NCBI GenBank assembly: GCA_963827655.1
Contig: CAWHCF010000038.1
Coordinates: forward strand, 153,445-217,444
Length of the DNA: 64,000 nt
Reading direction: 5' to 3'
Origin: an uncultured Acidobacteriota bacterium
GTDB lineage: Bacteria > Acidobacteriota > UBA6911
Part shown: positions 6,249 through 42,277 of the stretch, in pieces
Layout of the letters: every line of letters begins with the position of its first letter
Position numbering within the stretch: the first letter of the stretch is position 1
Program-made: the position numbers and the translations under genes
The notes under the pieces: generated by a model
Databases searched by the model: none
Seen by the model: only the letters and a program-made list of their open reading frames with translations
What the model was told of the DNA's origin: nothing

Positions 6249-8447
6249 TCAAAAGATATTGACTGTATACGTGACCCTGAAATTGCGGCCATACTCCGCC
6301 GCCAGGTCCTTGATGTACGAGAGATGGTTCCGGTACAGGCGGTCTCCTGCGTTGATCAGCGCGGCGCTGATGGTGTGGCCGATCCGTCCGGCGTTCCAGG
6401 TATAGGCGGCCTTGAGGTTCACCACGGCGTAACCCGCAGTCCTGGTCTCCGGACCGAAAACCTCATCCTGGTCCGAGGCCATAACAAGCTGAGGCGCAAA
6501 ACTGAAGCCTTTGTGGCGGAATTCCACGCCGGCGCGTCCGCGCAACGGAGGAATGCGCGGCAAGTGCTCGCCGCTGTCGGTCAGCTCGGCGTTCACGTAG
6601 TCCGTACCAAGGTCCAACCAGAGCCAGTGCGTCAGCCCCACCCCGAGGCCGATCTCGAAACCGGTAAAACGGGAGTTGCCTTGAGTGAACTCAAAGACCG
6701 GGAGATTGTCTTCGATCTCGCCGGTCGGAGCGCCGAAGATGAAGTCCTGAATGTGGGTGTAGAAATAGTTGACCTCTCCGCGGAAACGCTCGGTCTGATG
6801 GCGCAACGAGAGGTCGATGCCGTTCCCGAGCTCGCGGCTCAGATTGGGGTTGCCGATCTCAAATCGCACCGTGCCAATGTGGGGGCCGTTGTTGTACAAC
6901 TCCTCGAGCGCAGGCGCGCGGTACGCCAGAGCGTAGTTTGCGGCGAAGACGGTGCTGGGGCCCAAGTCCTGCAGGAGACCAACCGATCCCGAGAACCCAG
7001 TGAAGCTCCGGTCGATCAGGCCGTCGGGACTGTAACTCGTATGGTCAAGGCGCCCTCCGAACTGAAGCTTGGATCTTTCCCATGCCAATTCCTCGTAGGC
7101 GAAAACGGCGAAGCTGTTTTGCCTGGTCGGGGGAGCCAGGGCTTCTGCGCCAATGGTCTCGTAGTCGCGGTGCAGCCCCCAGATGCCGAGGGTTCCGGTG
7201 AGCCGTCCGGCCCTGGCCTGCTCGAAGAATCCCTGGTATTCGAAAAGGTTGTTATTGAATCGCGTCGTGACTTCGTCTTCCTCGAGTTCCGCGTGTTGGT
7301 AGTCGGTATATCCTGCCCGGAAGCGCAAGTTATTAAACGGACCCGCGAGGTTCTTGAGGCCGGCCTTGAACTGAAACACGTCGCGCTTCGTATCGATGTC
7401 GATTAGCGCGTCCTCTTCCCCCTCGAAAGTGCCGGCGAACGGAATCCCAAAACGCAAATCGTCGTGTCCATAGTTGAAGCCGAAGCTTCCTCGCTCCTTG
7501 ACGAAGTCAAAACCGAGCTGCGCGGTTCCAGTGCGCGTTCGACTGTTCGGGACCGTCCCTTCCGGCGTATGGTAATCATCGGCGCGCCTTCCCCCTCCCC
7601 CGGCATGGAAGATCCAGCTCCCGGTGCCCAGGTCGATGTGGCCGTTGGCCGCCCCTTCCGAGTTGACCGTTCCCCCTTCAAAGCGCGCGTGTCCACTGAC
7701 GCCCTTGAACGGCGCGGTGTGGCCGACGTCGGAACTTACCGTATTGATGACGCCGCCGATGGCATTGCTGCCGTAAAGCAGCGATGCCGGACCGCGCACG
7801 ACTTCAATTCGTTCGAGGCTTGAAGGATCGATCGGAACACCATGGTCGCCTGACTGGCTGCTCAAGTCGGCCGTGCGGTTGCCGTCCTGAATCACCAGCA
7901 CGCGGTCGCCATCGAAGCCCCGGATCACCGGACGGGCCGAGCCCGGACCAAAACTGCGCATATTGACGCCAGGCTGCTCCTTGAGCGATTCGGCCAGCGT
8001 GCCCGAGAGGTTCTGTTCCAACTTTATCCCTTCAAGGGTCGATGTTGGTTGATAGGTTCTGAAGGTTTCTTGAGTGTACGGGCTCGCGGATACGACAACA
8101 TTCATCGCCAGTGGAGAAAGGGTCATCGGGATGTTGACCCTGGTCACGGCGTTATCCGTCACCTGAATCTTTTGCGAGCTGGTCTGGAAACTGGGGCCGC
8201 GCGCCTCGAGGAGGTAGGTTCCAGGCTGCACCCCCTCGATCTTGAACCCGCCGTTGTTGTCGGTAACAGCCGTTTGCCTGGTTTCAACGACCGTTAATTC
8301 GATGCCCGGCAGGGGTTTTTTGCTGCCGCCATGACTGACGATTCCTTCGACCGAACCCGGTGCGGCCCAGGCCGGCTCAGCGCAACTCAGCAATAACAGA
8401 AGCAAAATCCAGTTCTGGATGGACTCGAAATAATTGCGGAAAATCAT
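6249..8447 (-). CDS. TonB-dependent receptor, ZnuD-like metal uptake, with an N-terminal carboxypeptidase-regulatory-like domain
   Basis: Signal peptide; plug motifs RPVIRGFDGDRV...DHGVPIDP and IEVVRGPASLLYGSNAIGGVIN; C-terminal Phe. Confidence 0.9.
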   Translation of the reverse strand: MIFRNYFESIQNWILLLLLLSCAEPAWAAPGSVEGIVSHGGSKKPLPGIELTVVETRQTAVTDNNGGFKIEGVQPGTYLLEARGPSFQTSSQKIQVTDNAVTRVNIPMTLSPLAMNVVVSASPYTQETFRTYQPTSTLEGIKLEQNLSGTLAESLKEQPGVNMRSFGPGSARPVIRGFDGDRVLVIQDGNRTADLSSQSGDHGVPIDPSSLERIEVVRGPASLLYGSNAIGGVINTVSSDVGHTAPFKGVSGHARFEGGTVNSEGAANGHIDLGTGSWIFHAGGGGRRADDYHTPEGTVPNSRTRTGTAQLGFDFVKERGSFGFNYGHDDLRFGIPFAGTFEGEEDALIDIDTKRDVFQFKAGLKNLAGPFNNLRFRAGYTDYQHAELEEDEVTTRFNNNLFEYQGFFEQARAGRLTGTLGIWGLHRDYETIGAEALAPPTRQNSFAVFAYEELAWERSKLQFGGRLDHTSYSPDGLIDRSFTGFSGSVGLLQDLGPSTVFAANYALAYRAPALEELYNNGPHIGTVRFEIGNPNLSRELGNGIDLSLRHQTERFRGEVNYFYTHIQDFIFGAPTGEIEDNLPVFEFTQGNSRFTGFEIGLGVGLTHWLWLDLGTDYVNAELTDSGEHLPRIPPLRGRAGVEFRHKGFSFAPQLVMASDQDEVFGPETRTAGYAVVNLKAAYTWNAGRIGHTISAALINAGDRLYRNHLSYIKDLAAEYGRNFRVTYTVNIF

Positions 8448-10039: not shown

Positions 10040-11058
10040 GTGACTTATTCTCGTCTTTCGGAGGGCGCTACGATCCGCGACTTGCCTCGTATCCACCTGG
10101 CTTACCTTCCCACGCCCGTGGACTTCCTTTCACGTCTCAGCGGCGCATTGCGGGGTCCTCGCATCTTCATCAAGCGCGATGATCTCACGGGCCTGGCGGA
10201 GGGGGGAAACAAGACCCGAAAACTCGAATATCTGCTGGCCGAGGCGAAGGCGCAAGACGCCGATACCCTGGTCACGCTGGGTGCGCGACAATCAAACCAC
10301 TGCCGGCAGACTGCGGCGGCGGCCGCCAGATGCGGCCTCAGGTGTATTCTCGTTCTGCGCGGCGACCCGCCGGCGGCAGCACCGGCAATCTGCTGCTCGA
10401 TCGCTTGTTGGGCGCCGAGGTGCTCTGGTCCGGCAGCCGCCCGCGTGAGACGGTGATGGACGAAGTCGTCGCGCGCGAACAGGCGTCGGGACGGCGGCCT
10501 TACGCTATTCCTCTGGGGGGGTCCAGCTCGCTCGGGGCCGCGGCATACGCAATCGCGATGGGCGAGGTGAAGGACCAGATGGCCTCGCTCGAGAATCAGC
10601 AGGTCGCCCGATTCGATCGGATCATCTTTGCGTCGAGTTCGGGCGGCACGCATGGCGGGCTTGTCGCCGGGGCGTACTTGACCGGCTTTGAAGGCGAGAT
10701 TCTTGGAATCAGCATTGACCAGGAGCTTGCCGAACTTAAAGAGGCCGTCTCGCGCATCGCGACCGGCGTGGCCGGCTTGCTCGCCCAGCCGCGCGCGTTC
10801 GCGGCGCGCGAGATCTCCGCCAGCGCCGACTACCGGGGTGAGGGATATGGAGTCATGGGCAAGCCCGAGCGCGAGGCCATTTCATTGTTTGCCCGGCTCG
10901 AGGGTGTTTTATTGGATCCGGTTTACACCGGGCGCGCGGCTGCCGGCATGATCGATCTTATTCGCCGGCGAGTAATCGGCCCCGAGGAGACGATTCTCTT
11001 CTGGCACACCGGCGGAACCCCGGCTCTCTGGGCGTACGAGCGCGAGTTACTCGCTTAG
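10040..11058 (+). CDS. D-cysteine desulfhydrase/ACC deaminase family PLP enzyme, frameshifted near 10375
   Basis: KRDDLTG...[10 protein letters not shown] and QSNH in the first frame; [24 protein letters not shown] and FWHTGG in the second. Confidence 0.85.
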
Positions 11059-11102: not shown

Positions 11103-12104
11103 ATGCGATCCATGGTTCTGGAAACTCCGGCCAAGATCGAGGAACAACCCTTGAAGGCGCGGGAATACCGGGTTCCGGAGCCGCAGGGAGATGAAATACG
11201 AATTCGGGTGAACGCGTGCGGGCTCTGCCACACCGACCTGCACACGGTCGAGGGGGATCTGGCGCTGCCCAGATTGCCGGTTATTCCCGGACACCAGATC
11301 GTGGGTGTCGTCGAGGCTCTTGGCCCCGATGCTGCCGGGTTTCGTGAAGGCGATCGAGCAGGCGTTCCCTGGCTCCACAAGACCTGCGGCAGGTGCTATT
11401 TTTGCCTCAGGGGACGTGAGAACTTGTGCGAACGGGCGCAGTTCACCGGCTTGCACGCCGACGGGGGGTACGCCGACTACGTTGTAGTGCCGCACGATTT
11501 CGCTTATCCTCTGCCCGGCGCATTTTCGGACTTGGCAGCAGCCCCCTTGCTTTGCGCCGGCATCATAGGTTACCGCGCGCTGCGCCTGAGCGAAGTCCGT
11601 CGCGGGGAAAGACTCGGACTTTACGGGTTTGGAGGTTCCGCCCATATTGCCATCCAGGTGGCGAGGCACTGGGGTTGTGAGGTCTACGTCTTCACCCGCA
11701 GCCAGGAGCACCGCGGGCTTGCGCGTGCTCTCGGAGCATCCTGGACCGGCGGCGCTGATGAAGAGCCGCCGGGGGCGCTCGACAGCGCCATCATTTTCGC
11801 ACCGGCGGGGAATCTCGTCCCAGAGGCCCTGCGTGTCTTGCGCCCCGGGGGAATGATAGCGCTGGCCGGCATCTACATGAGTCCTATTCCGGAGCTGGAT
11901 TATCATTCTATCTATCACGAGAAGGCGATCCGAAGCGTCGCTAACAGTACCAGGCAGGACGCCCGCGAGCTTCTGGAGCTGGCGTGCGAAATTCCGATAC
12001 GCACCGAAGTAGAAACGTTCGCGCTTGTCGAGGCGAACGAGGCTTTACTACGATTGAAGCAGAGCCGCATCCGGGGCGCCGGCGTCTTGACCATGACCCA
12101 GTAG
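11103..12104 (+). CDS. Zinc-dependent alcohol dehydrogenase family protein
   Basis: CGLCHTDLH, GHQIVG, CGRCYFC...C structural zinc site, GLYGFGGSAH. Confidence 0.92.
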   Translation: MRSMVLETPAKIEEQPLKAREYRVPEPQGDEIRIRVNACGLCHTDLHTVEGDLALPRLPVIPGHQIVGVVEALGPDAAGFREGDRAGVPWLHKTCGRCYFCLRGRENLCERAQFTGLHADGGYADYVVVPHDFAYPLPGAFSDLAAAPLLCAGIIGYRALRLSEVRRGERLGLYGFGGSAHIAIQVARHWGCEVYVFTRSQEHRGLARALGASWTGGADEEPPGALDSAIIFAPAGNLVPEALRVLRPGGMIALAGIYMSPIPELDYHSIYHEKAIRSVANSTRQDARELLELACEIPIRTEVETFALVEANEALLRLKQSRIRGAGVLTMTQ

Positions 12105-12165
12105 GTCCGGCGAGAAAAGGATACCGCTAAGACGCAAAGGCTCGAGGAAGAGAAGCTGGAGAGTC

Positions 12166-13617
12166 ATGAAACTGAGGTTTCTTCTTTATGGATTCGTCGG
12201 CCTGGCTGCTCTATTCGTCGCGGTCATGGCCTATCTGGTGTATTTCGGTGATGCCCCGGATGGCGCGGGCCTGTTTGACTCCGGAGGCATCGCTCAGCAG
12301 CTCGGGGGGGGATCCAGGACGGTCTCCGGCAAGCGTGGAAAACTGACGATCGCCTACACCGGCGACATCACAGGAAGCCTGGATCCGTGCGGCTGAACCG
12401 AGCCCGCCATGGGCGGAATGGCCCGGAGGGCCACTGCAATTAAAGACTACAGGCGACAGCATCCGGATCGACCTTTGCTGCTGGTTGAAACCGGGAATGC
12501 CATGAAACAGGGAGATAACCTGGATGATCCGGCCAGCCGGTGGGTGGTCGAGGCCCTCCACGCCCTGGGAAGTCACGCCGTCAACACCACAGTTGGCGAT
12601 TTGCGCAGGCTGAACCGGCTAGCCGAGCTGGGCCAGGTCCCGCGTGAACTGCGAACCACATATCTCGCGACCGCGATACAGCCTGCGTCCGCCAAGCATT
12701 TTCCCATCAAGCCTTATCTCGTCCAGTCGCTGCGGGCCGCGCAGGGGAACGAGGAAGTCCGCGCGGGCATCCTCGCGGTAAGCTCCGGCAACGAGGAGGC
12801 CTCCGGTGTCGGGCAAATCATTAACACGGATGAAGCACTGCGGCGCCATCTGCCGGAAGTGGCGGCGCAGTCGGATATTGTCGTCCTTCTGACCCGAGCC
12901 TCGGACCGGGAACTGGGAAGACTGGGACAGATGTTTCCAGCGATCGATGTGATCATCAACGGCAGCGCACATGGAGAAGGGCGCGAATTCGAAAGGAAGG
13001 GCGGGACCGTCATGGTGGAGTCCGCTCACGGCGGCGTCGGGCTGGGCGTCTTGGAGCTCGAATGGGATGTCTCCGGAAGCATCGAAAAATCCAGCAATCA
13101 TATCATTCCGCTGCCGCCACCCATGCCGGATGATCCCGAGATAGTCGCTCTAGCCCGGAAGGCCCATCTGGAATCGATCGATTATCTCGAGGAGGAGGCA
13201 AAGCGAAGCCCTCCCGTGACCGTTCCTTCCATGTTTGCCGGTGCGGGCGCCTGCAAGGACTGCCATGCAGCCGCCTTTCGGGTTTGGAAGAAGAGCGGGC
13301 ATGCCCACGCGATCGATACGCTCAAGCGGACCCGCGACCACTTCAATCCGGCCTGTCTGGAGTGTCACGTCACGGGATTTGCCGACCGGGTCGGAGGATT
13401 CGTCAATATACTGCGCACGCCTGAACTGGCCGACGTCCAGTGCGAAGCGTGTCATGGGCCGTCCGTCAAGCATTCTCAGAATCCCCAAGATTTTCACCCC
13501 AGCCCGGCCGAGCACATGCGCAAGAGAGTAAGGAAGGAGTTCTGCCTGCGCTGCCACACGTCGGAAAACTCGCCTGGTTTCAATTACGAGACCTATTGGC
13601 CAAAGATCCAGCATTAG
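12166..13617 (+). CDS. Putative selenoprotein: membrane-anchored UshA/5'-nucleotidase-like domain with a CGU motif fused to a tetraheme c554-like cytochrome c (483 aa if UGA is read as Sec)
   Basis: ORFs 12166-12396 and 12409-13617 are in the same frame and separated only by TGA at 12394-12396, giving GSLDPCG-U-TEPAMGGMARR; four CxxCH motifs (CKDCH, CLECH, CEACH, CLRCH); downstream hairpin. Confidence 0.8.
12419..12433 (+). promoter_or_regulatory. Candidate bacterial SECIS apical hairpin
   Basis: TGGCCC-GGA-GGGCCA; the G-starting loop begins 28 nt after the UGA. Confidence 0.6.
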
Positions 13618-13627
13618 CTCGGGGATG

Positions 13628-13674
13628 CTTAGCGTTTCTTCGTGTCCTCGTGTCTTAGGGAGCCCTTAGTGGTC
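13628..13674. repeat. 9-mer-periodic repeat array (family A)
   Basis: CTTAGCGTTTCTTCGTGTCCTCGTGTCTTAGG...TTAGTGGT. Confidence 0.7.
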
Positions 13675-13712
13675 GGTTTTTGTTCCGTCTTCTGGCAATG
13701 GAGTGCTGGCCT

Positions 13713-13844
13713 GGTTCGCGCGAAATAAGTCGCATTCTGCTGCGCAGCCGAGGTGCGATTCTCAGCCTGCTTAGCGAACAGAAACCGGTTCATGATTGAC
13801 CACCGACTTGCGCCAGAATGTGAAGTTATTTCTGCGCGAGCCCT
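13713..13844. mobile_element. MITE-like element with ~30-bp terminal inverted repeats (family C, copy 1)
   Basis: GGTTCGCGCGAAATAAGTCGCATTCTG...CAGAATGTGAAGTTATTTCTGCGCGAGCCCT; homologous to 40991-41152 and 53624-53856. Confidence 0.8.
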
Positions 13845-14391
13845 AAGGCTTCTTTTCCCAATCTGTCCGCAGCACGGCCATCACCAGCGTGTCGCGGTAG
13901 GCGCCGTCATGGAAGTTATCCTGGCGCAGGCGCCCTTCCAGTTGAAAGCCAACTTTCTCATAGCAACGGATGCCCCGCGGATTGTCGGCGTAAACTCGAA
14001 GGAAAACCCGGTTGAGGTTGAGGGTGCTGAACCCCCAAGCGACCAGTGTGCGGACGGCGTCGGTTCCGTAGCCCAGGTTCCAGTATTCTTTCACCCCGAT
14101 CAGAATTCCGATCTCGCCGGAGCGGTTGCGCCAGTCGATTGCGTGATAACCACACCCGCCAATATGTTCCCAGCCCTTACTTTCGGTTCCTCCGGGAAGC
14201 GCATCAATGGCCCACGCCTGCGTGTCTTCTGCCGACAGGTTTTGTTCGAACCAGCGCTCTTCTTGCTCGAGACTCAAGGGTCTGTATTGAGCCAGATGAG
14301 TGCGGACTTCAGGATCAGCGAACCAGCGGACAAATCGAGGCAGGTCATCCCGGTCGATGGGCCGCAAGCGAATATTCCTTCCAGGTATCAT
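13843..14391 (-). CDS. GNAT N-acetyltransferase (RimJ/RimL-like)
   Basis: IRLRPI, EIGILIG..YWNLGYGTDA, NPRGIRCYEKVGFQLEG. Confidence 0.88.
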   Translation of the reverse strand: MIPGRNIRLRPIDRDDLPRFVRWFADPEVRTHLAQYRPLSLEQEERWFEQNLSAEDTQAWAIDALPGGTESKGWEHIGGCGYHAIDWRNRSGEIGILIGVKEYWNLGYGTDAVRTLVAWGFSTLNLNRVFLRVYADNPRGIRCYEKVGFQLEGRLRQDNFHDGAYRDTLVMAVLRTDWEKKP

Positions 14392-14491
14392 TGCGATTCT
14401 CTTCCTTCTTGCCGTTAATCCTCATCTTACCTTACTTTCTGCGGACTGCCTGAATTGCCGTTGTGGTATAGGTAGGGTTACCGAGGTGCAT

Positions 14492-16106
14492 GTGGGGACC
14501 AATCGCCAGGCATGGATGCAATTGCTCGATAGCTATGTTCGCGACGAGCAAGTCCTGTTCCAGGGAGGAGGAGCGCAGAATATCGAGAAGCAGCATGCCA
14601 AGGGACGACTGACTGCCCGGGAGAGAATCCGCGCAGCTGATCGACCCGGGAACCGAGCTGCTCGAATTGGGACTCTTCGCCGCCTTCGAAATGTATCAGG
14701 AATGGAGCGGGGCGCCATCGGCAGGTGTCGTAACAGGGATCGCCCCGGTCGAGGGACGCCTCTTCATGATCATCGCCAACGATGCCACGGTGAAGGCCGG
14801 GTCGTTTTTTCCGATGACGGTCAAAAAAGTTCTCAGGGCCCAGCGGGTCGCCATGGACAACCGTCTTCCCCTGATTTACCTCGTGGATTCGGCCGGCGTT
14901 TTCCTGCCGCTGCAAGACGAGATCTTCCCCGATGAAGACGACTTCGGCCGGATTTTTCGCAACAATGCGCGTATTTCTGCGCTCGGAGTGCCGCAGGTCG
15001 CGGCCATCATGGGAAACTGTGTGGCCGGCGGCGCGTACCTTCCCGTCATGTCCGACAAGATCTTGATGACCGAGGGGAGTGGTCTGTATATCGCCGGGCC
15101 ATCGCTGGTCAAGGCGGCAATCGGTCAGGACTTGAAGAGCGAGGATCTGGGCGGGGCGCGGCTGCATGCGGCCTTGAGCGGCACCATTGATTTTCGCGAG
15201 CCCGACGATGCCACGTGCCTTCGCAGGATCCGGCACATCGCTTCCCTGATGGGGAATCGACCGCGTGCCCCGTTTCATCGCGCCCCTCCTCGCGATCCGG
15301 CCCATTCCAGCGACGAACTCTACGACTTGATGCCGGTCCATCCCTCGCGCGAATACGATATTCGTGACATCATCGGCCGGTTGGTTGACGGAAGCGAGTT
15401 TACCGAGTACAAGGCCGAGTTTGGAAGAACTCTGGTATGCGGTTATGCCCGCGTTGGGGGCTGGGCCGCCGGGATTGTGGCCAATCAGAAGACCCACATC
15501 CGGGAACCAGGGAGACCCTTCGAGGTTGGAGGGGTGATCTACACCGAAGCCGCAGACAAGGCCGCCCGTTTCATCATGGATTGCAATGAAAACCTCGTCC
15601 CTCTGATTTTCCTTCACGACGTCAATGGCTTCATGGTCGGGCGAGATGCCGAGATTTCCGGGATCATCAAATCGGGCGCCAAGATGGTCAATGTGGTGTC
15701 GAACAGCGTCGTGCCCAAGATTACCTTGATACTGGGTGGAAGTTATGGCGCCGGACATTACGCCTTGTGTGGCAAGGCCTACGATCCCCGGTTTGTTTTC
15801 GCCTGGCCTACGGCCCGTTATGCGGTCATGGCCGGCGCCTCGGCCGCCCGCACCCTGGCTGACGTCCGCGTGCGACAGGAGGAGAAAGCAGGGAAAAAAC
15901 TGTCGGTCGAGGAACGGGACAAGATACTTCGAAGTGTCGAAGCGCAGTATGACTCCACCCTGGACCCGCGTTACGCTGCCTCCAGGCTCTGGATTGACAA
16001 GATTCTCTTTCCGGCCGAGACCCGCGATGCGCTGATTCTGGCGCTCGACGTTGCGTCCCACAATCCGGAAGTTGAGCCCTTCCGCACGGGAGTCTTGCAA
16101 GTGTGA
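14492..16106 (+). CDS. Acyl-CoA carboxylase carboxyltransferase (methylcrotonyl-CoA carboxylase beta-like), frameshifted near 14630
   Basis: QGGG..IEKQHAKGRLTARERI in one frame; ANDATVKAG, LVDSAGVFLP, GNCVAGGAY and GGSYGAG in the next; start approximate. Confidence 0.85.
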
Positions 16107-20276: not shown

Positions 20277-21588
20277 GTCCCTACCAACAATTCCGTCCAG
20301 ACGGAGAATATTGCACTTATAGATTTGGCCTGTTAGGCTCCCGATCTATGTGCCGCGTAGTTCGGACTACTCTCGTTGAGCTCGACCCTACAATTCGGCT
20401 TCCGCAGCCGAGCTACACTGTTGGCGGAGATCCTGGCCCTGCGACAGCAGATCAACGTCCTCAGACGCTCCGTTCCCAACCGTCCCAGACTTCGACCATC
20501 GGACCGACTTTTCTGGACATGGCTGTTGCGCGTCTGGCCCGACTGGCGCTCCGCTCTTGTCCTCGTGAAACCGGAAACAGTCGTCGCATGGCATCGCAAA
20601 GGTTTCCGATTCTTTTGGACCTGGAAAAGCCGGCATGGGCGAGCCGGGAGACCTTCGATTCCCAAGGACGTCCGCGAGCTGATCCGCAGCATGAGCAAAG
20701 CCAATCCGCTTTGGGGAGCTCCGCGGGTTCATGGAGAAATCCTCAAACTCGGAATCGAGCTCTCGCAGGCGACCGTCGCCAAGTACATGGGCCGGCGTCC
20801 AAAGCCACCCTCGCAAACCTGGCGCACGTTCCTCAAAAATCACAGCAAAGAAATCGTTTCGATCGACTTCTTCACGGTTCCGACCATTACGTTCCGCATT
20901 CTCTACGTCTTCCTCGTCCTGGCTCACGACCGGCGGAAGGTGCTCCACTTCAACGTTACCGCTCATCCAACCTCAGAATGGGTTTCACAGCAGCTTGTTC
21001 AAGCCTTTCCATGGGACACGGCGCCACGATATCTCGTGCGCGACCGCGATGCGATCTACGGTGAGCGCGTGCGAGGGCAGTTGAAGGACATGGGAGTCAA
21101 AGAAGTCCTTACTGCCCCTCGATCGCCATGGCAATCTCCTTATGTCGAGCGCCTGATCGGATCCATCCGACGCGAATGCCTCGATCACATCGTCGTGATC
21201 AGCGAAACCTCGCTCCGCAGAACACTACGCTCCTATTTCGCTTACTATCACAGAAGCCGCATTCACCTCGCACTGAATAAAGACGCACCAGACCCACGCC
21301 CAATATACCCTCCCGAACTTGGCACTGTCGTCGCGCTCCCAGAGGTCGGCGGCCTTCACCATCGATACGAAAGAAGAGTTGCCTGACACAGGGAACCGGG
21401 CTCTACTTCTTTCGCAAGGTTCCGAGCCAGCCGTGTGCCCGCTGTGCCAATTGATGCTGAATGCTCGCCTTGAAAATGCCCTCCGAGGGACCAAAATCGT
21501 GCCGCGTCCGAATCCCCAACTTCCCCCTCCGGCGATAACTGGGCGAAACGACCCCCGAGCCCTCTTGGTCGGAGTTTTTGGTAGGGAC
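20277..21588 (+). mobile_element. Insertion sequence (~1.3 kb) with an rve/integrase-core DDE transposase and 24-bp imperfect terminal IRs
   Basis: Left IR GTCCCTACCAACAATTCCGTCCAG (20277-20300); reverse complement of the right IR GTCCCTACCAAAAACTCCGACCAA (21565-21588); no flanking target-site duplication seen. Confidence 0.88.
20376..21386 (+). CDS. Transposase, integrase core domain
   Basis: NPLWGAPRVHGE, SIDFFTV, RDRDAIYG, SPWQSPYVERLIGSIRRECLDH, GGLHHRYER. Confidence 0.92.
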   Translation: MSSTLQFGFRSRATLLAEILALRQQINVLRRSVPNRPRLRPSDRLFWTWLLRVWPDWRSALVLVKPETVVAWHRKGFRFFWTWKSRHGRAGRPSIPKDVRELIRSMSKANPLWGAPRVHGEILKLGIELSQATVAKYMGRRPKPPSQTWRTFLKNHSKEIVSIDFFTVPTITFRILYVFLVLAHDRRKVLHFNVTAHPTSEWVSQQLVQAFPWDTAPRYLVRDRDAIYGERVRGQLKDMGVKEVLTAPRSPWQSPYVERLIGSIRRECLDHIVVISETSLRRTLRSYFAYYHRSRIHLALNKDAPDPRPIYPPELGTVVALPEVGGLHHRYERRVA

Positions 21589-22020
21589 TGGCACCTGATG
21601 CTGGCCGCGATCGGGGACGTGGGCCGTGACGGCATCGATCCATTCGAGCGGGTCGAAGATGCGGACCGTGGCGCCGGTGCGGGGATCCGGGGGGCGTTTG
21701 GATCTCGAAACGGCCGTCCTCGCGCCGGCGGATACTGTCGATCGCAAGCGCCGGGCGAGAGATGTAACGCGCGACGCGCTCGAGGCCTTGTCGGTCTTCG
21801 GTGGGAATAATATCGCCGGCGAAGACGGAAAAGCCCGGATGCACCCACCCGAGCAGGTTGTGCATGAAGCGCTCCGATAGGCGCTCTTGGGCGTGAAGGC
21901 GGCGGAGCAGGAGGCGGCGAAAGATCTCGCCTACGGCTGCCGTGTCGACCGAGGGCAACTCGAAGAACTCTCCTGCCCGAGTAAAGACTCCATCGGAAAC
22001 AAGCAGGTGCAGGTGGCGCA
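21589..22020 (-). pseudogene. IS91/Y2 (HUH) transposase, central/C-terminal fragment cut by the IS
   Basis: HLHLLVSDGVF HUH motif, WVHPGFSV, LERVARYISRP, then after a frameshift DPLEWIDAVTAHVPDRGQHQV, which ends at the IS right IR. Confidence 0.8.
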
Positions 22021-22793
22021 GGCGTTCACGAGTCCTGTACCTCGACCATGTCGAGGGTGATGGGCGGCTGCTGTTCGAGCAAACAGGTGTCAAGGTGATA
22101 TTGTTGCTATCATGAGCCGAACGGGCTATCGTTCGACGCGAATCGTCCTCACGTTGATTGTGGGCTAGGAACGTCGCGGGTTCCCCACTATCGATAGCGC
22201 GTCCGCCTATCTCGAAACAGGACTCCAGTTCGGCTCGCCGTCACCGGTCGTGGTCTACGGACCATCACGAGCGTTTCCCATGCTGCACAACCGAATCAAG
22301 GCTTTACGCGTCGTTGCAGCACTGACGGTGCTGGTGCAAGCTTTCTGCTCGGCCGGTTTCGGTGCGATGTGTAGTCGCGAAGCTTCCCTTGAAAATTCCA
22401 CCTGAGCCCGCCCTATCCTCCATCAGCCGTTCAAGCAAATTCCTATTGGTTTTATGACTGTGATCTCTTCCGTGACGGCATATGTGATGCCTAAGCGCGA
22501 TAGTTCGGCCTGCGTAGCTCGATAGCACGCCGATCTTAAACGCTCGTTAGCGTTATCGCTCACGCGTTGTTTCCGAGTGTTTGCGATTCTTCTGCCGATC
22601 GAAAACGGTGCTGGGCTTACACGATCCATTTATTTTTTCTTTCAATCAGCAGTAAAAAGCATCTACCATGGTTCAATCCAGAATCTCTGAGAAACAGCCC
22701 TCACGAGGCCCATATTTACGTTTACCGTAAGTCTCGTCCCCGTTAGGCTTAGCAGTTTAGGTCAATCTGATGTGAGTCTCATGGAGAATAGAA

Positions 22794-25700
22794 ATGAAAT
22801 TTGACTTCACTTCGGAAATCGGCCGTTCACGGATTGCATGGTCCGGCATCGGCTTTTTCGCGCTGGCGTTCCTTCTGGTGCCCTCGGTGGCGCTGGCTGA
22901 GAACGTGGTTATTCCGCAGGGCGTGACCGGGACGCTAATCCTAACGTTCAAGGAAACCAATGGCGCGGCGTGTGAACGAGTTCGGTGTTATCAGGCGCGA
23001 AGGCCTGTCAATTGTCTACCAGAGGTTGATGGACACATCACCGAGTCGGTCCCCCGCGTCTTAGACTTCAATCCCCAGGTCCGCGGGGGCGAGACATTTG
23101 AGTTTTATATCCAAACCAACAAGCTTTTCATTCCGGATGTCACGCCGGCCACCTACTCAAGTGACCCTAAGCAAAATGCAACTATTGATCCCGGCCTCCT
23201 GGACCACATTCAGCAGCCTCAGCAGCAATCGAACAATGTCTGGCTATTGCGTTGGGAGGATAAGAAGAGCTCGGATCCAGGCTTTGACAAGGACTTCGAC
23301 GACCTGGTCGTGACCGTGCAGGTCCTACCGGCCCGCTGCGACAACGTGACGATTCCCTGCCCCGGCATCAACGATGTAACCTCGAATCATAATGCGACCC
23401 GCGTCGCCCCCGTGCTAGAACGCCGCTCTCGACCGCATCGAGCTGGCGATCGGTCCGTCTACGAAAACCAGCCAGAGCTTCCTAGTGCCGAAGGGGATAA
23501 CGTCGTGCACCGGGTCTTCCGTGGATAACCTGCGGTTCAGCTTCATGCAGGAGAGCATCGACTATCAGACAATGGTGCGGCCTCAAGTCGAAGGCTGCGC
23601 ATCGTGCGGTGCCGTCCGAGGCGGGAACGTGGGTGGGCTCCCAGAGTTGACGATTCGCCGCTACCACCGACCGCGGGAGACGGCGGTCTGGTCCTCATTC
23701 GGACCGGGGGTGTTCAGCAACTTTGATACGAAAATCGAGCTCATCACCATGGGACTGGGCAACCAACCTAATGTCCGTCTCTTCGACGCCACCACCGATA
23801 CCCCACTACTTACGTTTTTCGAGCTGAGCCCCGAGGATGGCGATGTGGCAGAGGATGGTGTGTACCACGAGACCGCGACCCGAATCTGGAAGGCGCTGGA
23901 GCTGTTTAGCGACAGGGAGAGGCGCATACGCACGAGCAGCCAGAGCAATGCCGTGACCGCGGTCCTGACCGCGCACACGGGCGAGCGACTGGTGTTTGAA
24001 GTCATCCGCATACAGCCTGCGGACCCCGCACTCTACGGCCGACTGATACGCCTCGAGGACCCAAACCAGAACGCCGTGATTGTTAGCTATGTGTACGGAG
24101 CTCAGGCCTCGAACCCGGCACCTGGAACGCGGTTATGGCAGATCCATACGATCACGGATGCTTATGGGATATCCGCGCGGTTCCATTATCGCGACGCATT
24201 AGTGGGGGGCCGCTGGGCGGTCAACCGGATTGAGCTCCCAACTGACGGACAGCTCCGACAGCTCCAATACCTGTATAGACAGGAGCTGCCCGCTCAGGTG
24301 GACGAAGGACCTTTCCTACAGGAGGTAATCCATCCCGACGGCACACGATCGCGTTTCACATTGCGCTTCGACCCGGCCACGAAGCTCGTGGCGCTGGGGT
24401 TCGATGACAGCGCCGAAGGTCCCGGACAAGCGCGGAAAGAGGTTTTTGTCACCCCGAGCCAGGCCTGTCCAATGGGACTAGCGTGAGCCAAACGCCGCAC
24501 CTCGTCCGACTCATAGTCAACGGCGATGGCGAATTGGTTTACCGAAATTGGGAGGACCCGGCCGACCCGCGCATCATCTATGTCTACGAGGGCGGGGTGC
24601 TGCATCGTCTGACGACACGCGATGATGGGTTTCCGGTTGCCTATGCTCGCGCGGTGTCCTACCGTGTGGATCGGGATCCGCGCAGCGCAACGTTCGAGAC
24701 CATCGAGACGTACGACGCCAACTTGCAGCAGATGCTGGAGGAGCGGAAGGATGCGCTGGGACGCGTAGAGAAACTCACTCGTGATGACGCGAGCCGTGCT
24801 GTTAAGGGTCTGACGTTCTCTGCCGATAGCTCGACAGTTGTCGCCACGTACAACGCGTTCCGCAAACCGGAGAAGGTGACCGATCGATTGAAAAGAATTA
24901 ATACATAATACCTATGACATCCGCGGCAATGTCCTGAGCAGAAACCGTCGCCCTAGGGACCCCGGACCAGGCGACGTGGCGGCGGGGGTACAACCCCAGC
25001 CGGGGCCAGCTGACATTTTTGACGGACGCCAATGGCAACAGCACCGAGTATAGGTACGACCGGACGGGCCGGCTTGAATCTCAGATCGAACCGGCCCACG
25101 GCCCCGGTGAGCCAAAGGCGACTACAACCTTCGCATACGATTCCCGTAGGCCGCCTCATGTCGCGGAAGGACGCGGAAGGGCGAACGATCAGCTTCAAGT
25201 ATGATCTCCGGAACAGGGTGATTTCGATTCACTACCCCGACGGCAGCGCGGAAAGCTTCGACTATGGCCAGGACAAAATGGTTGGGGGGAATTGCGGCCA
25301 TCAGCCCGCCAACCTGCTCATCGCGTATACCGATCGCAATGGCAATGTGCAACGGTTCGAATACGACCGGACGAAGCGGCTCTGCGCCAAGATCATGGCT
25401 GCAGGAAGACCCGAAGAGGTGCGCGATCTTTACACATATGTTCCGGGGACGTCGCTGGTTAAGACCACGGTGCAGCGGGGTGAGCAAACCGACTATGAAC
25501 GGGACGGGCGCAATCGGCTCACAGCCACTGTCGTACATATTTCTGGAGGCCGAGCCCTGAGAACCTCGACAATCTATGATGTGCTCGACCGCGTAGTCCA
25601 AAGCACGGACCCTTACGGCCGTTCGGTCTTGTTCGTTTACGACGTGAACGATCGCCTGAAGCGCACGATTACCGAGCTTGTCCCTAGGGGCGTTCCACAG

Positions 25701-28700
25701 GCAGCGAATCTAGAGATGCTGCCGCGCGATCAAAGCCTAAACCCGCCGTACGTCATCTGGGACATCAATTCAGACAGCATGGGTCAGGTAAAGAGAGTTA
25801 TCGATGGTCGGGGAATTGAGACAACGTTTGACCACGATGGTCAGGGGCGCCTGACGGAGCAGATCGAAGCCTTCGGAACTAAATGTGGCGGCCAGGACTA
25901 AGCGCGAGTACGACAAGCGTCGGGAACCTGATTCGCATGATCCATCCGCGGAACTTCACGGAAGGAGACGCCGTACGGCCCTTTATCACTCGGTACACAC
26001 CACACGAATCGCAATCTACAGCGGTCAGTCACGGTCGCAGCCGACACGCCGGACCAGGCAACCACCACCAAGCACTACACCCTGACCGGAAAGCAAAAGG
26101 AGATCGAAGATGCGCGTGGCCATAAGACGAGCTTCCGTTACGAACCGTGCTGTGACCGCTTGAAAGAAATGATTGATCCCACAGGCGCCGTAACCCGCTA
26201 TGGTTACGATCCTTACGGCAATCGAACATCAGTCACCGATCCGAACGGGAACGAGGTGCGCTTCGAGTATGACGGCCTGCATCGAATGAAAGCACAAACC
26301 AACGCCGAGCGGAGAAACGACGCGCTTCGACTACGATGACGATCTGACCGACGGGCGCGGGCTGGATCAGCGTTTCCGAGAGCACATAAGGGATCTCGGC
26401 TTTTCGCGTGGGGCCGATGGCATGGCAATGTTGGTCACAAATCCGCTTAACGAGACGACCCTGACTGTGATGGACAGCTTGGGCCGTGTCGTACGGACGG
26501 TCGACGGGAACGGCAACGCTACAACGATGAGCTACGATGCGGTGGTGGGTGGACTAGTTGAGACGACGCGCAGCGATGCTCTCGGACACACTTCGCGGTC
26601 CCGCCAGGACGGTCTCGGCAGGGAGAGGCAGCGCCTCGACGCGGAGGGGAAAGTGACAACTGCGATGTTCGATGCGGCCGGCAACCGGAGGGCGGTCTTC
26701 GATCCGGACCTCGTGGGCGAGAGTTGCATGTTCGACGCTCGCAATCGCCCGACGACCTGCATGGACACCAAAGGCGACACTCGGGAGACGAGGTACGACG
26801 CTCACTCGAACCAGACCTTCCTCCTCGACGGTCGGGGGGCGATCACGAGGATGGAGTTCGATGCGCGAGATCGAGTGACGAACCGGTTTGATCGTATTGG
26901 TGGTAATACGATCTTTGTCTACGATCAAAACTCGAATCTGGTACGTACTCAAGACGCCGAGCGCAACACGACCGTTTATGAATACGATGCCCGAAACTTG
27001 CGGATAAGAGAGACCTTTCCGTCCTCCGGGGGACGACTGGACACTAGGTCAATGGTCTTCGACCCTGGACGACGATTGATATTGCGCATCGACCAGGCTG
27101 GCGAAACCGACACAGTCGAGTACTTGAGTATGACCGAGCCAATCGGTTGGTGCGACGACGCTACCGCGATCGTCAGGACGACATATTCGAATATGATGAC
27201 GCATCTCGCTTAAAATCGGCGCGTTCGGAGCGCTACGGGACTTTGGTACAGCGGCAGTACTACCCCAACGGGCTTCTCAAGGAGGAACAGCAGGACGTGC
27301 TCGGCGAGCATCACGTGCTGAACTACACGTACGATCGCGCCAACCGACAGACGCAGGTGACTTACCCGGATGGGAGCGTGGTGGTACGAACGTTTACCGA
27401 CCGCGATCAGCTGAAGACAGTGTCGCTCAACGGGTCGCTGATTGCATCACGGGATGAGTATTCCATTGGGATGCGGCTGCGTCTGGCGAGACTGGGCAAC
27501 GGGCTTGTCGAACGCCGCGATTATTCACCGCGACGGGTCTGCTGTGCCCTACTGGAGGTTCCGGGCGTAACGACGTTTTCTTATAGCTATGACGCCAACA
27601 AGTGGAAGCAGGAGGAACGGGTAACGACAGCTCCCGACGAGAGCCAAAGCTTCCTCCGTGCTGACGGCACCTCGGGCTATGATGCCGAGGGCCGCCTCGA
27701 GTCCTGGGCCCGGGGCAGCGCCCAGACGCAGACGTGGACCCTGAGCCCCGTGGGCGACTGGAAGCAGACACAGCGAAACGGCGCTGTTGAGGATTCGCAC
27801 GCATAATCCCGTTCACGAGCTGACAGGGATCAACGGCAGGTCACTATCGTACGATCCGAAGGGAAACCTCGTCGGCGACGACCACGGGAACAGCTACGCC
27901 TGGGACTTCGAGAACCGACTGCTGCGGGCCCAAGGACTTCAGGGAGAGACACGCTATTTCTATGATGCGCTCGGGCGACGACTCGGCAAGACAACGGGCA
28001 TGACCGTGGTAAGGATGACTACGGTATTCGTGCACGACGGGGAGCAAGTGGTCGCCGAGTACGAGAACCAGCGTCTCGCTCGCCGCTATGTCTACGGCTC
28101 CTATATCGACGAGCCGCTAGCGCTTGCGATGGGTGAGGAGCTGTTTTTCTACACCGCGAATCACCTGTACTCGGTGGCAGCGCTCACCGACCGGAATGGT
28201 CGCGTCATCGAGCGTTACCGATACGACGCCTACGGCGCGCGGACAGTCACGGATCCGGGAGGGACCTCGCGCGCAGCATCGATCGTTGGCAACCAGATTG
28301 GTTTTACCGGACGCTATCACGATGAAGACTCCGGGCTTATCGATTTCCGTAGCCGGCAATATGACCCCCGCCTCGGACGGTTCATCGGCCGCGATCAGGG
28401 CTACACTGACGGCATGTCTCTCTATGCAGCCTACTTCGTGCCGAATCAGACGGACCCGTTCGGATTAGCCCGAAGCTGCGAAAATACCAAAGATCTTAAC
28501 ACAGTGGACCTTCCTGTGCAGCCCATGCCGAAACCCTTACTCAAAACCACCGAGTTCGCCACAGGTTGTCTGCTAAAGTGTACGGAGCACTATGAGAAGG
28601 GAGTGCGATTACATAGTAACAACTGTGACCACAGCAGACGGCAAGACTGTAACCACCACTACCAAAACCTGTACTGAGTGGGAACTCGTCAGCATAACTT

Positions 28701-29011
28701 GCGGTAATGTGGAGTGTGTGGGTGATTCAGGTCCGGGAGCCGGTGGCCCACCGGGGCGAAGCCGTCTCGACTTTCCGGTTTCGGGGCTGACAAGAACCCA
28801 GTGCGAATGGATCTGTAGGAGCATCGGATTTACGTTGACTACCAGTTGCAAGCTCGAGGTGGCATTCTTCGCGTATGGTAGGCTTAAGTTGAGAGGAATG
28901 GAACTGGGGGCTATCGGGGTGGGCGTGACGGTCGGAGAACTTTGTACAGTCTTGTTTGGACCACGAATAAATGACTGCTTGAACGCATGCAGAAGTCTAC
29001 CGAACAAGTGA
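22794..29011 (+). pseudogene. Large Sec-exported RHS/YD-repeat protein (about 2000 aa if restored), broken by roughly ten frameshifts
   Basis: N-terminal signal peptide; successive overlapping ORFs with YD repeats (YDRTGRL, YDALGRR, YDAYG); RHS core GFTGRYHD...RQYDPRLGRF...PNQTDPFGL ending at 28467; Cys-rich tip. Confidence 0.85.
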
Positions 29012-29047
29012 GGTCGTTGACGACGGGGGAACGTTGTCGAGATCGCT

Positions 29048-29140
29048 GTCCCTACCAAATAGTTCATTCTCCCGTGGGGCGGCTTCGCCCAATTAGCGGG
29101 CGGAGGGGAAGGTGTGGAATCCGCGTGCCGCAAAATCTGT
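29048..29140 (-). mobile_element. Relic right end of a second, inverted copy of the same IS family
   Basis: GTCCCTACCAAA...TTCGCCCAATTAGCGGGCGGAGGGGAAGGTGTGGAATC aligns by eye with the reverse complement of 21490-21588. Confidence 0.7.
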
Positions 29141-29491
29141 GCTTCCGTCATCAAGTGTTGCTATGCCGCCAGATGTAACGGATCGCGCTGTTCTGGACTG
29201 ATATTCTCAGGATGAATCCCCGCGAGATTCTCGATTTCGCGCCGTGCAAGATGGCAGAGGTGAGGCGACCCGCTGTTTGCCTTCCAGGATAGGATATCTG
29301 CATGCATAGGCGGTGAAGTCTCCTATCCCGCCCACTGTCGATGGTCGGATCGATTTAATGGTGGGCCCCGACAAAAAGCGTCGGGGCCGGCGTCGCGTTT
29401 GATTCGCCGAGAGCCTCCGCTCCGAAAGCTGTTTTTTCCGGGGCAGCAGATTCCCCGAGCAAGGCTATGAGCACGGGTCGTGCTGATGACG

Positions 29492-29728
29492 CTACCAAGG
29501 GCGAGGCTGCGGTGTCTTGAAGCGATTGCAACGCTGCACTGCTCGGGCTATCCAGCGCCGGATTGCGACGCGCTGGGCCCCGGAGATGGGCTCGTTGTCG
29601 TGGTACCAGCGGAAGGTCTTGATTTCCTGGAGTAGGTCTGTTTCGGGAAAGTCCGTCAGTAACTCGTGGACGAACGGGATATCGATGTGTGCCTCGAAGC
29701 GATAGCACGGAGTCAGCTTCCGTCGCAT
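29492..29728 (-). CDS. Small hypothetical protein translationally coupled to the AAA gene
   Basis: ATG overlaps the upstream TGA (TGATG at 29726-29730). Confidence 0.45.
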   Translation of the reverse strand: MRRKLTPCYRFEAHIDIPFVHELLTDFPETDLLQEIKTFRWYHDNEPISGAQRVAIRRWIARAVQRCNRFKTPQPRPW

Positions 29729-30842
29729 CAGCCCTCGGGCCTGCCCGAACCGGCAGGCAGGTTTTGCAGCCGGCGCGACCCGGCTGCAAAGTCATTGAGG
29801 AGGCGATATTGGCCATTGTCTCGGACAATCCGGCCTTGGTGGCACGCGGAGGCAATGGCGAGCTGTGCGGTGCGCTTGGAGCGGCGGAAGCAGGCTGCAC
29901 ACGACGGTCTCTCCAGGGAAGGGTAGGTATTCTGGAGGCAATCCGGGAACTCAGGCTCGAGCAAGCGGTGGCGCTCATGATGTGGCGTCGGAGTTCGTTG
30001 TAACCTGCCGCATGCCCGAGGCCGGCCAGAGCCTGTTCGACGTCAGATTTTTCCACCTTGCGACGGGATTTGGCCGAGACAGCCGGGGCGCTACCAGCTG
30101 AAGAGAACCACAGGGGGTTGGGATCGAGCGAAAGCAGTTGCGGTTGGCGGGGCGCTGCATATCGGAACTGGAATCGCAGCTCGACGGTGTTGGGATCAGT
30201 GGAAGGACGCACGAGCAGTATGTAGCTGTCACCGACAGCATTGAGGGCGCCGCTACCGCGGAAGGCGCTTCCGACCTCGTATCGGCCGACCGACTTGCGG
30301 ACGTGGTGGATGACGACCAGGGCTGCCTTGGAGCTGTCACGCAGTCGCAATAGGGCCTGGCACAGCGCGGCCATTGCGCGCGTGTCGTTTTCGTCCTGGT
30401 CGTGAGCCGAGTAGAGGGGATCGAGAACGATGACCTCGGCCGAGGCTGTACGAGCTGCGGCAAGGAAGTGATTGAGGCCCTGCGGACTGTTGAGCAGGTG
30501 GCCGGCGGCACGGGTATCGATGAACAGATTCGAGTCCGCTGCCGCTCCTAAGGGTTTGCGCATTTGGGCCAGGCGCGCGGCAAACTGCTCAGTCGGGAGT
30601 TCGAACTGGCAGATGAGCACACGGCGGGGCTTCGGAATCGAGAAACCGATGCGAGAAGATCCGGCGGCGAGGGCGAGGGCCAAATTAGTAACGAGGATCG
30701 ATTTGCCCGCTTTAGGTTCGCCGCCGCAAAAGAGAATACCCTGCGCAGGAAGTAAGCCTGGCTCGACGAAGCAAGGCTGGGGCGTGGGATTGGCCCGTAG
30801 AAGCTCGCCGAGCGAAAGGACGGTGGGAAGCTTCGTGCTCAC
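29728..30842 (-). pseudogene. AAA_25/RepA-like helicase-ATPase with a C-terminal winged helix, interrupted by an 80-bp insert
   Basis: Walker A GEPKAGKS, VIVLDP, IHHVRK, AFRGSGA; removing 29879-29958 restores ...ATACSKRTAQLAIASACHQGRIV... Confidence 0.7.
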
Positions 30843-31585: not shown

Positions 31586-31714
31586 GCACACTGATGTACT
31601 TACGGCAGGCACCCAAAAAAGCAGGTGCAGGTGGGGATGAAAATTTGCTCCGAACGAACCGAAGCTCTAGATCGAAATGACGCCCCCGGGCGGACGTCCT
31701 TGCGGCCGAACAGT

Positions 31715-31900
31715 GTCTGGAAGCTTCCCTGGAGACGACCGCAGGCAAGAAACTGCTGGACACTTTCAGGCACAACGCGGCGCAGCGGTCCTGAGCGGGG
31801 CTCGAAGCGCTCCTCATAGGCGCGGACGTAACTGTCGAAGTGCTGCTCGAATGTCTGGTAGAAAATGGAAGCTTCAGGATGGCGAGGGCGATAAACAACC
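31715..31900 (-). pseudogene. IS91-like transposase N-terminal (zinc-binding) fragment
   Basis: VYRPRHPEASIFYQTFEQHFDSY...EERF...LRRVV...FLACGRLQGSF resembles the start of this family. Confidence 0.65.
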
Positions 31901-41152: not shown

Positions 41153-41165
41153 AAGGCCCGCAAAC

Positions 41166-42266: not shown

Positions 42267-42277
42267 GGAATCGCGCC

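Follow-up and report, generated by a model that had tools for sequence, protein, structure and literature searches.

The gene described here lies on the forward strand at positions 12166-13617 of a 64-kb stretch of contig CAWHCF010000038.1 (assembly GCA_963827655.1), which we call the window and number from its first base. It forms a single reading frame of 483 codons closed by a TAG stop, with one in-frame TGA at codon 77. A listing of open reading frames (ORFs) breaks it into 12166-12396 (76 amino acids, aa) and 12409-13617 (402 aa), which share a frame and have only that TGA between them. When the TGA is read as selenocysteine (Sec, U), the product runs ...AYTGDITGSLDPCG-U-TEPAMGGMARR..., with U77, in the context DPCG-U-TEPAMGG, as its one recoded codon. 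Judged from the sequence, the locus is most likely a single gene for a Sec-containing member of the UshA-like CxU (PCGU) family in an Acidobacteriota genome. The split pattern alone is within chance, given that the window holds 73 same-frame ORF pairs separated by one TGA. The observation rises above chance because homology spans the TGA, the homologues have cysteine at its column, TGA is kept in two of two orthologous two-domain loci, and the most invariant 40 nt of the gene start there.

A Shine-Dalgarno-like motif precedes the first ATG (Table 1); no such motif was found ahead of the internal ATG at 12409. Full-length homologues are collinear with 97-100% of the query and share its N-terminal hydrophobic segment, which is the hydropathy maximum of the protein (mean Kyte-Doolittle value 2.28 over 19 residues) and may act as a signal-anchor or signal peptide. 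An AlphaFold2 model, built from an input alignment of 68 sequences (predicted local distance difference test score, pLDDT, 90.2; predicted template modelling score 0.82), places a helix at residues 2-27, a linker, a nucleotidase-fold domain at 58-340, a long helix at 324-347 and a compact tetraheme module at 355-483. The linker (residues 28-55) is Gly/Ser-rich and of low confidence, and its modelled disordered part, with pLDDT below 50, covers residues 28-38. The initial annotation, made from the letters alone, had described two same-frame ORFs parted only by a TGA, an N-terminal membrane anchor, a degenerate metallophosphoesterase-like region with the string LLVETGN, and a fused tetraheme cytochrome c with four CxxCH motifs. 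Each of these was recovered here, LLVETGN at residues 105-111 and the heme-binding motifs at C363, C397, C426 and C460.

Table 1 Features of the candidate selenoprotein gene and its flanks (window coordinates)
Feature	Position	Strand	Basis
Shine-Dalgarno-like GGAG	12158..12161	+	4 nt ahead of ATG, read from sequence
Complete coding sequence, codon 77 TGA read as Sec	12166..13617	+	Uninterrupted when TGA = U; NF041198 is best family match
N-terminal hydrophobic segment, residues 5-27, putative signal-anchor or signal peptide	12178..12246	+	Hydropathy, AlphaFold2 helix
5'-nucleotidase/UshA-type calcineurin-like phosphoesterase fold, residues 58-340	12337..13185	+	Protein Data Bank profile match and Foldseek
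C75-G76-U77 dyad, with TGA at 12394-12396	12388..12396	+	Cys/Sec column in homologues
SECIS candidate A: long interrupted hairpin, apical loop GGAAUG at 12415-12420, 18 nt past UGA	12399..12436	+	RNAalifold consensus
SECIS candidate B: UGGCCC-GGA-GGGCCA, loop 28 nt past UGA	12419..12433	+	Stem invariant in three sequences
c554-type tetraheme cytochrome c module, residues 355-483	13228..13614	+	PF13435 and 1bvb
CxxCH motifs	13252-13266, 13354-13368, 13441-13455, 13543-13557	+	Read from sequence

The Sec reading of codon 77 is carried by comparison with relatives. A family-profile scan of 1.84 billion representative sequences gave 23,624 matches at E ≤ 1e-3 and 3,714 at E ≤ 1e-30, totals that may include single-domain matches. 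The best 150 of the 23,624 aligned as 158 stretches, of which 22 are N-terminally short and 136 cover the Sec column. C-x-C is present in 133 of these 136 and a cysteine at the second position in 135; of the remaining three, two retain just the second cysteine and one lacks both. Position 75 and the U77 column are cysteine without exception in the 16 full-length homologues aligned, and the latter column is thus Cys or TGA in the homologue alignment that the initial annotation had proposed as a check. The TGA forms were found at the DNA level, where we compared three loci (L001, L002 and L003) drawn from a genome-contig scan with an eight-sequence alignment. L001 and L002 are Acidobacteriota assemblies with the two-domain gene, their proteins being 53% and 56% identical to the window protein, and both have TGA at the Sec column (DPCG-U-TQPAMGG and APCG-U-TEPAMGG, respectively). 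A closer relative, P0002, is 83% identical to the window protein and has PCGC before TEPAMGG, with Cys at the TGA column; hence, Sec and Cys forms coexist among close relatives. Two further sequences, P0111 and P0112, lie on one 5,063-nt contig and resemble frameshifted pieces of a P0002-like gene. The third locus, L003 (979-2133, forward strand), encodes a 384-aa distant, heme-less relative with a DPC-D-C motif on the nucleotidase-like domain (70.4 bits against the NCBIfam model NF041198, on profile positions 17-276 only), so the CxC scaffold exists also without hemes.

Public gene calls bear the mark of the same TGA. Among 65 database homologues in the alignment, the 20 that cover the column are all C-x-C, 25 begin at a Met five residues past the TGA, four begin three residues later and 16 are otherwise truncated. 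One of the 25, P0028, is 100% identical to residues 72-473 of the L001 product and is therefore a TGA form that public annotation has cut short. Of nine matches found when short proteins were searched, six are N-terminal fragments ending in ...DPCG. The near-identical public calls P0003 (98%) and P0105 (99%) split at the TGA too, as do four more N-terminal fragment clusters. TGA is not reassigned in the window, given that it ends 18 of 39 ORFs (38 Pfam-backed neighbours and the selenoprotein gene, which itself ends in TAG). A second TGA-interrupted gene was sought in the window, where seven of the 73 split pairs lie outside Pfam-backed genes; apart from the present gene, these are either small or nested within it in a different frame, and no family search of them was made. 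Taken on these comparisons, we regard the Sec reading of the TGA as well supported.

At the RNA level, a codon alignment of the three genes (window, L001 and L002) identifies the 40 nt starting at the TGA (12394-12433) as the most invariant 40-nt segment of the gene, with 35 of 40 positions invariant against 44.6% gene-wide. Across residues 78-90, the codons are identical in all three genes at six of nine conserved columns with a degenerate residue, whereas the same measure gives 44/186 gene-wide (binomial p 0.0075) and 0/10 for residues 60-76. This points to selection at synonymous sites in the RNA segment that follows the UGA. The segment can form two conserved, mutually exclusive hairpins, each a candidate selenocysteine insertion sequence (SECIS) element. 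Hairpin A, from an RNAalifold consensus of the three sequences, has 12 pairs, of which the two outer ones are compensatory in L001, the sole compensatory changes seen. Its energies are -16.7, -19.5 and -16.7 kcal/mol in the three sequences, and its core is the minimum free energy structure of the window sequence (-18.6 kcal/mol). Hairpin B (-10.1 to -10.3 kcal/mol) is part of the minimum free energy structures of L001, where it has 10 base pairs, and of L002, and is the centroid structure in the window. All three variable columns within 12401-12432 are unpaired in A, and none falls in the stem of B, two lying upstream outside B and the third in its loop.

To be accepted by bSECISearch, a bacterial SECIS reportedly needs an apical loop with a G, roughly 16-37 nt after the UGA; the loops of hairpins A and B both start with G and presumably fall within this distance. 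The initial annotation had singled out hairpin B, which is indeed present with its loop G at 12425, 28 nt from the TGA, but as one of two exclusive structures. Its expectation of a SECIS element just 3' of the UGA fits the conserved stem-loop region found there, with the qualification that the alternative, hairpin A, places its loop at 18 nt, is more stable in the window and holds the only compensatory changes.

The first rival explanation is that the TGA is a true stop. The locus would then be a pseudogene, or it would yield two products, a membrane peptide of 76 aa and a cytochrome of 402 aa with its own start at ATG 12409. Gene callers do split the locus in this way, as the public calls P0003, P0105 and P0028 show, ORFs of the window end in TGA more often than in any other stop codon, and no Sec machinery was seen in the window. 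However, the 402-aa product would have no export signal and yet need periplasmic heme attachment at four CxxCH motifs, and its ATG is the one that no Shine-Dalgarno-like motif precedes. In all 16 full-length homologues aligned, the two parts correspond to one collinear protein with a cysteine where they join. The TGA is also kept at 53-56% protein identity, which pseudogene decay would not preserve, and synonymous change is suppressed directly after it. A true stop is very unlikely on this evidence.

A second explanation keeps the read-through and replaces Sec by another amino acid, with the UGA decoded by a suppressor tRNA carrying either Cys (a tRNA-Sec-like tRNA-Cys) or Ser (an allo-tRNA). 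Cysteine is functionally acceptable at the column, and the consulted portion of PMC5389517 describes allo-tRNAs of Acidobacteria that may act as nonsense suppressors, together with a selC* tRNA-Cys(UCA), possibly using a second SelB, in other phyla. The phyla that the same portion gives for selC* tRNA-Cys are Firmicutes, Thermodesulfobacteria, Nitrospirae and Proteobacteria, and Acidobacteria are not among them. Moreover, tRNA genes of every kind are absent from the window, selenoprotein catalogues already list the family, and general suppression of UGA would carry a high cost with TGA closing 18 of 39 genes. We give suppressor decoding little credence, and decoding as Sec remains the preferred reading.

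The dyad formed by Cys75 and Sec77 sits on a recognisable scaffold. A profile of 17 family members matches the 5'-nucleotidase 5h7w in the Protein Data Bank (PDB; E 6.9e-19, residues 58-340), and Foldseek on the AlphaFold2 model returned 5h7w (E 8.6e-18), UshA 1ush (E 1.7e-15) and SoxB 2wdc (E 1.5e-15), as well as CD73 and YfkN. The best Foldseek matches (E about 1e-17 to 1e-15, template modelling score about 0.47-0.5 on the query) cover the N-terminal domain only. 5'-Nucleotidase, UshA, CD73 and SoxB are all periplasmic or extracellular enzymes and share the fold over residues 58-340; the window protein differs from them in having lost, as far as the alignment tells, the metal and catalytic residues. 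The canonical metallophosphoesterase motifs are DxH, GD, GNH(E/D), H and GHxH. In the alignment with 5h7w, a snake-venom 5'-nucleotidase, only D67 of the metal and catalytic positions is kept, the others being T69, N111, V143/G144, R244 and S267, and both D67 and N111 vary even within the family. The only invariant residues of the N-terminal domain in the 17 sequences are G58, G70, C75, C77, G83, G84, R88, G110 and L242. The C-x-U dyad is placed in the loop directly after the first former metal motif. No Pfam match to Metallophos or 5_nucleotid_C was found at E ≤ 1; the latter is the C-terminal substrate-binding domain of 5'-nucleotidases, and its place is taken by the c554-type cytochrome of residues 355-483.

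These observations also bear on a third explanation, in which the N-terminal domain is an active phosphoesterase, either a nucleotidase or SoxB-like, and the CxU motif is structural, for example a disulfide like the one found near this point in animal ecto-5'-nucleotidases. The fold and profile matches to 5'-nucleotidases and SoxB would fit such an enzyme, as would the alignment of U77 with a cysteine of the snake-venom 5'-nucleotidase. The SoxB model TIGR04486 gives E 1.6e-5, which amounts to 23.4 bits against a cut-off of 550 bits. With the loss of all metal and catalytic positions except a D67 that is itself not invariant, the missing Pfam domains, the replacement of the substrate-binding domain and the short list of invariants given above, we consider an active phosphoesterase quite improbable. 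A redox dyad on a disused nucleotidase scaffold is the reading that we carry forward.

The C-terminal module is of the cytochrome c554 type. PF13435 is the sole Pfam domain seen in the protein (E 9e-17; its 62.2 bits exceed the cut-off of 20.8), and the family profile aligns collinearly with Nitrosomonas cytochrome c554 (1bvb) over residues 355-461, with all four CxxCH motifs (E 1.2e-19). Invariant in 68 sequences are the four CxxCH motifs and three additional histidines, H379, H436 and H483, the last of which is the final residue of the protein. Cytochrome c554 has three bis-His hemes and one five-coordinate heme. Three invariant extra histidines for four hemes fit this pattern and, by the likeness to c554, the sixth coordination position of one heme may be open or unusually occupied. 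The module differs from c554 in its length (about 125 residues against 211), in its fusion to another domain and in its membrane anchor, and it scores 36.3 bits against the 400-bit cut-off of the c554-type NCBIfam model NF043010. Another exported c-type multiheme protein with Sec is ExtKL (NF040886), listed as a selenoprotein in the consulted part of PMC13188914; its existence means that Sec is compatible with heme attachment in the periplasm. The resemblance to ExtKL is weak (E 5.7e-4, 18.6 against 250 bits) and confined to the heme region, and ExtKL has no nucleotidase-like domain.

Among NCBIfam models the best match is NF041198, 'UshA_like_PCGU', an UshA-like (seleno)protein model, with E 1.3e-70 and 238.5 bits in two stretches. 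The best stretch aligns residues 310-475 with positions 351-519 of the 519-position profile; this is the heme region, so the catalogued model already includes the heme module. The window protein, at 483 aa, has both parts of the NF041198 architecture (nucleotidase-like domain and C-terminal multiheme region) and its P-C-G-U or CxU motif, with DPCG-TGA at codons 73-77 and Cys in the non-Sec members. None of 13 two-domain relatives reaches the curated cut-off of 275 bits (203.5-256.4 bits), and the window protein and all 13 relatives thus represent a mostly Acidobacteriota-labelled clade just outside the curated equivalog. A second model, NF049981 ('UshA_like_Sel_2', family 2), also describes Cys or Sec on a nucleotidase-like scaffold and matches residues 60-140 on profile positions 1-85 (E 3.3e-12). 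It differs in score (46.4 against 140 bits), in that only the first 85 of its 262 positions align, and in its motif, which is CxxU according to the consulted part of PMC13188914, whereas the window protein has CxU. The product of L003, with CxC and no hemes, is a relative of this broader group.

The family itself is not new. It appears as 'COG0737, UshA-like, CxU' (76 sequences with Sec, 92 with Cys) in the consulted part of the ocean-sampling selenoproteome of Zhang & Gladyshev 2008 (PMC2398784), and as a table entry in the consulted parts of two reviews (PMC9312934 and PMC13188914), the second of which gives NF041198 and cites the 2008 paper. In the literature searched, the UshA-like CxU family occurred only as a table entry, with no functional study and no discussion of the heme module. 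A search on UshA with multiheme cytochromes gave nothing on the family beyond the review table, judged mostly by titles and abstract openings, and the terms Acidobacteria, UshA and cytochrome are all absent from PMC5029168. Acidobacteria are recorded with three selenoprotein families in the part of PMC1794560 consulted. The initial annotation was right to assign the protein to a recognised group of CxU UshA-like selenoproteins. The fusion to a cytochrome that it pointed out is nothing new in this gene, being the standard architecture of NF041198; the best 150 of the 23,624 profile matches also mostly carry both domains. Hence, the protein is of a known kind, heme module included, and what is new is a member of a clade missed by curated models and gene callers.

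From these parts we infer a periplasm-facing Cys/Sec-to-heme redox protein. In the mechanism that we propose, SelB with Sec-tRNA(Sec) would read the UGA of codon 77, guided by a SECIS stem-loop within 12399-12436. The N-terminal hydrophobic segment would insert or export the protein so that its body faces the periplasm, where hemes would be attached at the four CxxCH motifs; the body is placed outside the cytoplasm because c-type hemes require it. The nucleotidase-like domain, no longer binding two metals, would serve as a scaffold that presents the Cys75-Gly-Sec77 dyad. The dyad would cycle between a selenol/thiol and a selenenylsulfide state and swap electrons with the c554-like four-heme chain, which in turn would be linked to other periplasmic or membrane redox carriers. 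Our best guess for the substrate chemistry is thiol/disulfide or sulfur/selenium. A more specific proposal, that the dyad on its dead nucleotidase scaffold and the heme chain, with one heme without a conserved second histidine, make up an uncharacterised periplasmic thiol/selenol:cytochrome oxidoreductase, is unlikely, and we offer it tentatively. It comes in two versions: a heme-linked disulfide relay that would pass electrons from DsbA-type or other thiol partners to the respiratory chain, or a Cys/Sec pair at the open heme, contributing to a new catalytic centre that would act on compounds of sulfur or selenium. The relay would have analogues in DsbB and VKOR, which pass electrons from thiols to quinone, and in the CGC shuttle of Erv-type oxidases.

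Some relatives hint at thiol redox chemistry around the same heme module. In four of 101 matches (P0075, P0079, P0081 and P0089) the c554-type module is fused to a peroxiredoxin or redoxin domain (AhpC-TSA, Redoxin), so that here, too, the module is combined with a domain of thiol-redox type; one of the four is labelled Candidatus Brocadiia. Among 18 long relatives, four match DsbA-like Pfam families weakly (E 1e-5 to 7e-5) and six have DUF1573 Ig-like domains. Three proteins of about 1,200 aa (P0115, P0124 and P0132) combine two UshA-like CxC domains, a weakly DsbA/GILT-like middle and a C-terminal tetraheme module, with CPHC in the middle region of P0124 and CIHC in that of P0132. P0252 (916 aa) has one CxC domain, a tetraheme region in mid-protein (CxxCH motifs at 309-403) and a weak DsbA-like match at 556-613. 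In the ESM Atlas the middle region lies nearest to DsbA/GILT clusters (0.84-0.86), values that the Atlas tool itself rates as no more than a lead. A PDB search gave no confirmation of the DsbA-like region of the long fusions, and it was not taken beyond that status.

Several results weigh against the reading as a Sec protein with a Cys/Sec-to-heme role. The first concern the decoding machinery. As the initial annotation had stated, no selA, selB, selC or selD lies in the window: scans of its 64 kb gave no tRNAs, no Rfam families at the gathering score and no SelA-, SelB- or SelD-type Pfam domains among 56 ORFs scanned. The 8-kb flanks of L001 and L002 likewise held no selA, selB, selD or tRNA-Sec. 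The second concern the RNA signal. The hairpin region folds no better than shuffled sequences (z -1.12, 27 of 200 shuffles equal), the 45 nt after the window TGA give z -0.62 with 44 of 200 shuffles as good, and the post-UGA energies across the three sequences have z -0.62, -1.87 and -1.34 (44, 14 and 16 of 200 shuffles as good); with energies no better than those of shuffles, folding energy was not used as evidence. An Rfam search of 12300-12600 at E ≤ 10 found no match, nor did searches of L001 and L002 at the gathering score, and known SECIS and tRNA-Sec models thus gave nothing. With just three DNA sequences, the choice of hairpin and the covariation rest on very little, and the nucleotide conservation comes partly from the conserved peptide T-x-P-A-M-G-G-x-A-R-R and a preference for GC-rich codons. 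On the protein side, the 238.5 bits of the window protein fall below the curated 275-bit cut-off of NF041198. The DsbA-like matches are weak, with one of the four above its Pfam cut-off, and a PDB sequence search with the long fusions gave 38 matches, all nucleotidases or cytochromes, and no DsbA.

The last point of this kind is that the window has at least two apparently frameshifted housekeeping genes, which means that its base-level accuracy is imperfect, though the errors are indels. The least probable of the rival explanations, that sequencing or assembly turned a TGC or TGT into TGA and the real protein is the Cys form, could appeal to these frameshifts (10040-11058 and 14300-16106) and to the Cys of the 83% identical P0002, but it would need a substitution rather than an indel, TGA stands at the same column in two independent assemblies, and P0003, P0105 and the four further N-terminal fragment clusters split at the same point. 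Weighing all of this, we consider Sec decoding together with a general Cys/Sec-to-heme redox role likely, Sec decoding being the better supported part of that joint reading.

The gene stands alone. A zinc alcohol dehydrogenase gene of the same strand ends 61 nt ahead of it, and downstream a GNAT acetyltransferase gene lies on the opposite strand. Within 11900-13900, a promoter and terminator scan gave no promoter-like site and two terminator-like sites on the minus strand, at chance level, and the antisense ORFs across the gene are as expected from sequence of 59% G+C. The order of a pyridoxal phosphate-dependent (PALP) enzyme gene, the UshA-like gene, a carboxyltransferase gene and a PD40 protein gene recurs in the window and in L001 and, without the PALP gene, in L002. 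We considered the neighbourhood as an operon or a functional clue and rejected it: the neighbours are unrelated housekeeping genes, the carboxyltransferase being 83% identical to that of L002, and we read the recurring order as shared ancestry of a chromosome region in related Acidobacteriota.

The PALP gene of the window (10040-11058, forward strand), for an enzyme of the D-cysteine desulfhydrase/D-cysteate sulfo-lyase family, is split between the overlapping ORFs 10040-10456 and 10330-11058, each in its own frame. They match positions 4-98 and 110-331 of NF052482, respectively, and the apparent frameshift is an assembly indel or the mark of a pseudogene. A frameshift is probable in the L001 PALP gene (6928-8004, forward strand) too, whose 358-aa ORF matches no more than positions 6-223 of a 332-position profile. 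The 4-nt overlap of that gene with the start of the UshA-like gene is therefore no evidence of translational coupling. The carboxyltransferase gene (14300-16106, forward strand) has its first approximately 57 residues in another frame: residues 68-124 of ORF 14300-14935 match residues 3-59 of the L002 protein, and the main ORF is 14667-16106.

Elsewhere in the window, 20376-33368 resembles a mobile or variable island. Its 20376-22093 part encodes an integrase core (rve_3) and a putative transposase (Y2_Tnp), the three ORFs of 22794-24908 have no Pfam match, 25032-28677 carries RHS-repeat ORFs in at least four pieces, and 29355-31612 encodes two AAA ATPases (AAA_25, AAA_22). A histidine biosynthesis cluster at 37937-45160 (forward strand) encodes a HisZ/HisS-like protein, HisG, HisD, an aminotransferase, imidazoleglycerol-phosphate dehydratase, a HisH-like protein and HisA/HisF, and is preceded by genes for a fused dehydroquinase-shikimate dehydrogenase and a GHMP kinase. 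On the reverse strand at 58749-62816, a DUF1501 protein gene adjoins one for a PSCyt1/PSCyt2 (planctomycete-type cytochrome/DUF1549) protein, a pair typical of Planctomycetes-like genomes; other markers in the window point to Acidobacteriota.

The first consequence is a correction of annotation. In this clade, gene calls routinely give a 76-aa "hypothetical protein" and, as a separate entry, a 402-aa "multiheme c-type cytochrome" without an export signal, and the clade falls 20-70 bits short of the cut-off of the curated NCBIfam model. The family is also large, with 3,714 representatives at the stricter threshold and 23,624 at the looser one, single-domain matches possibly included. If the Cys/Sec-to-heme role is true, the protein would represent an abundant, unstudied periplasmic redox module of soil and sediment bacteria.

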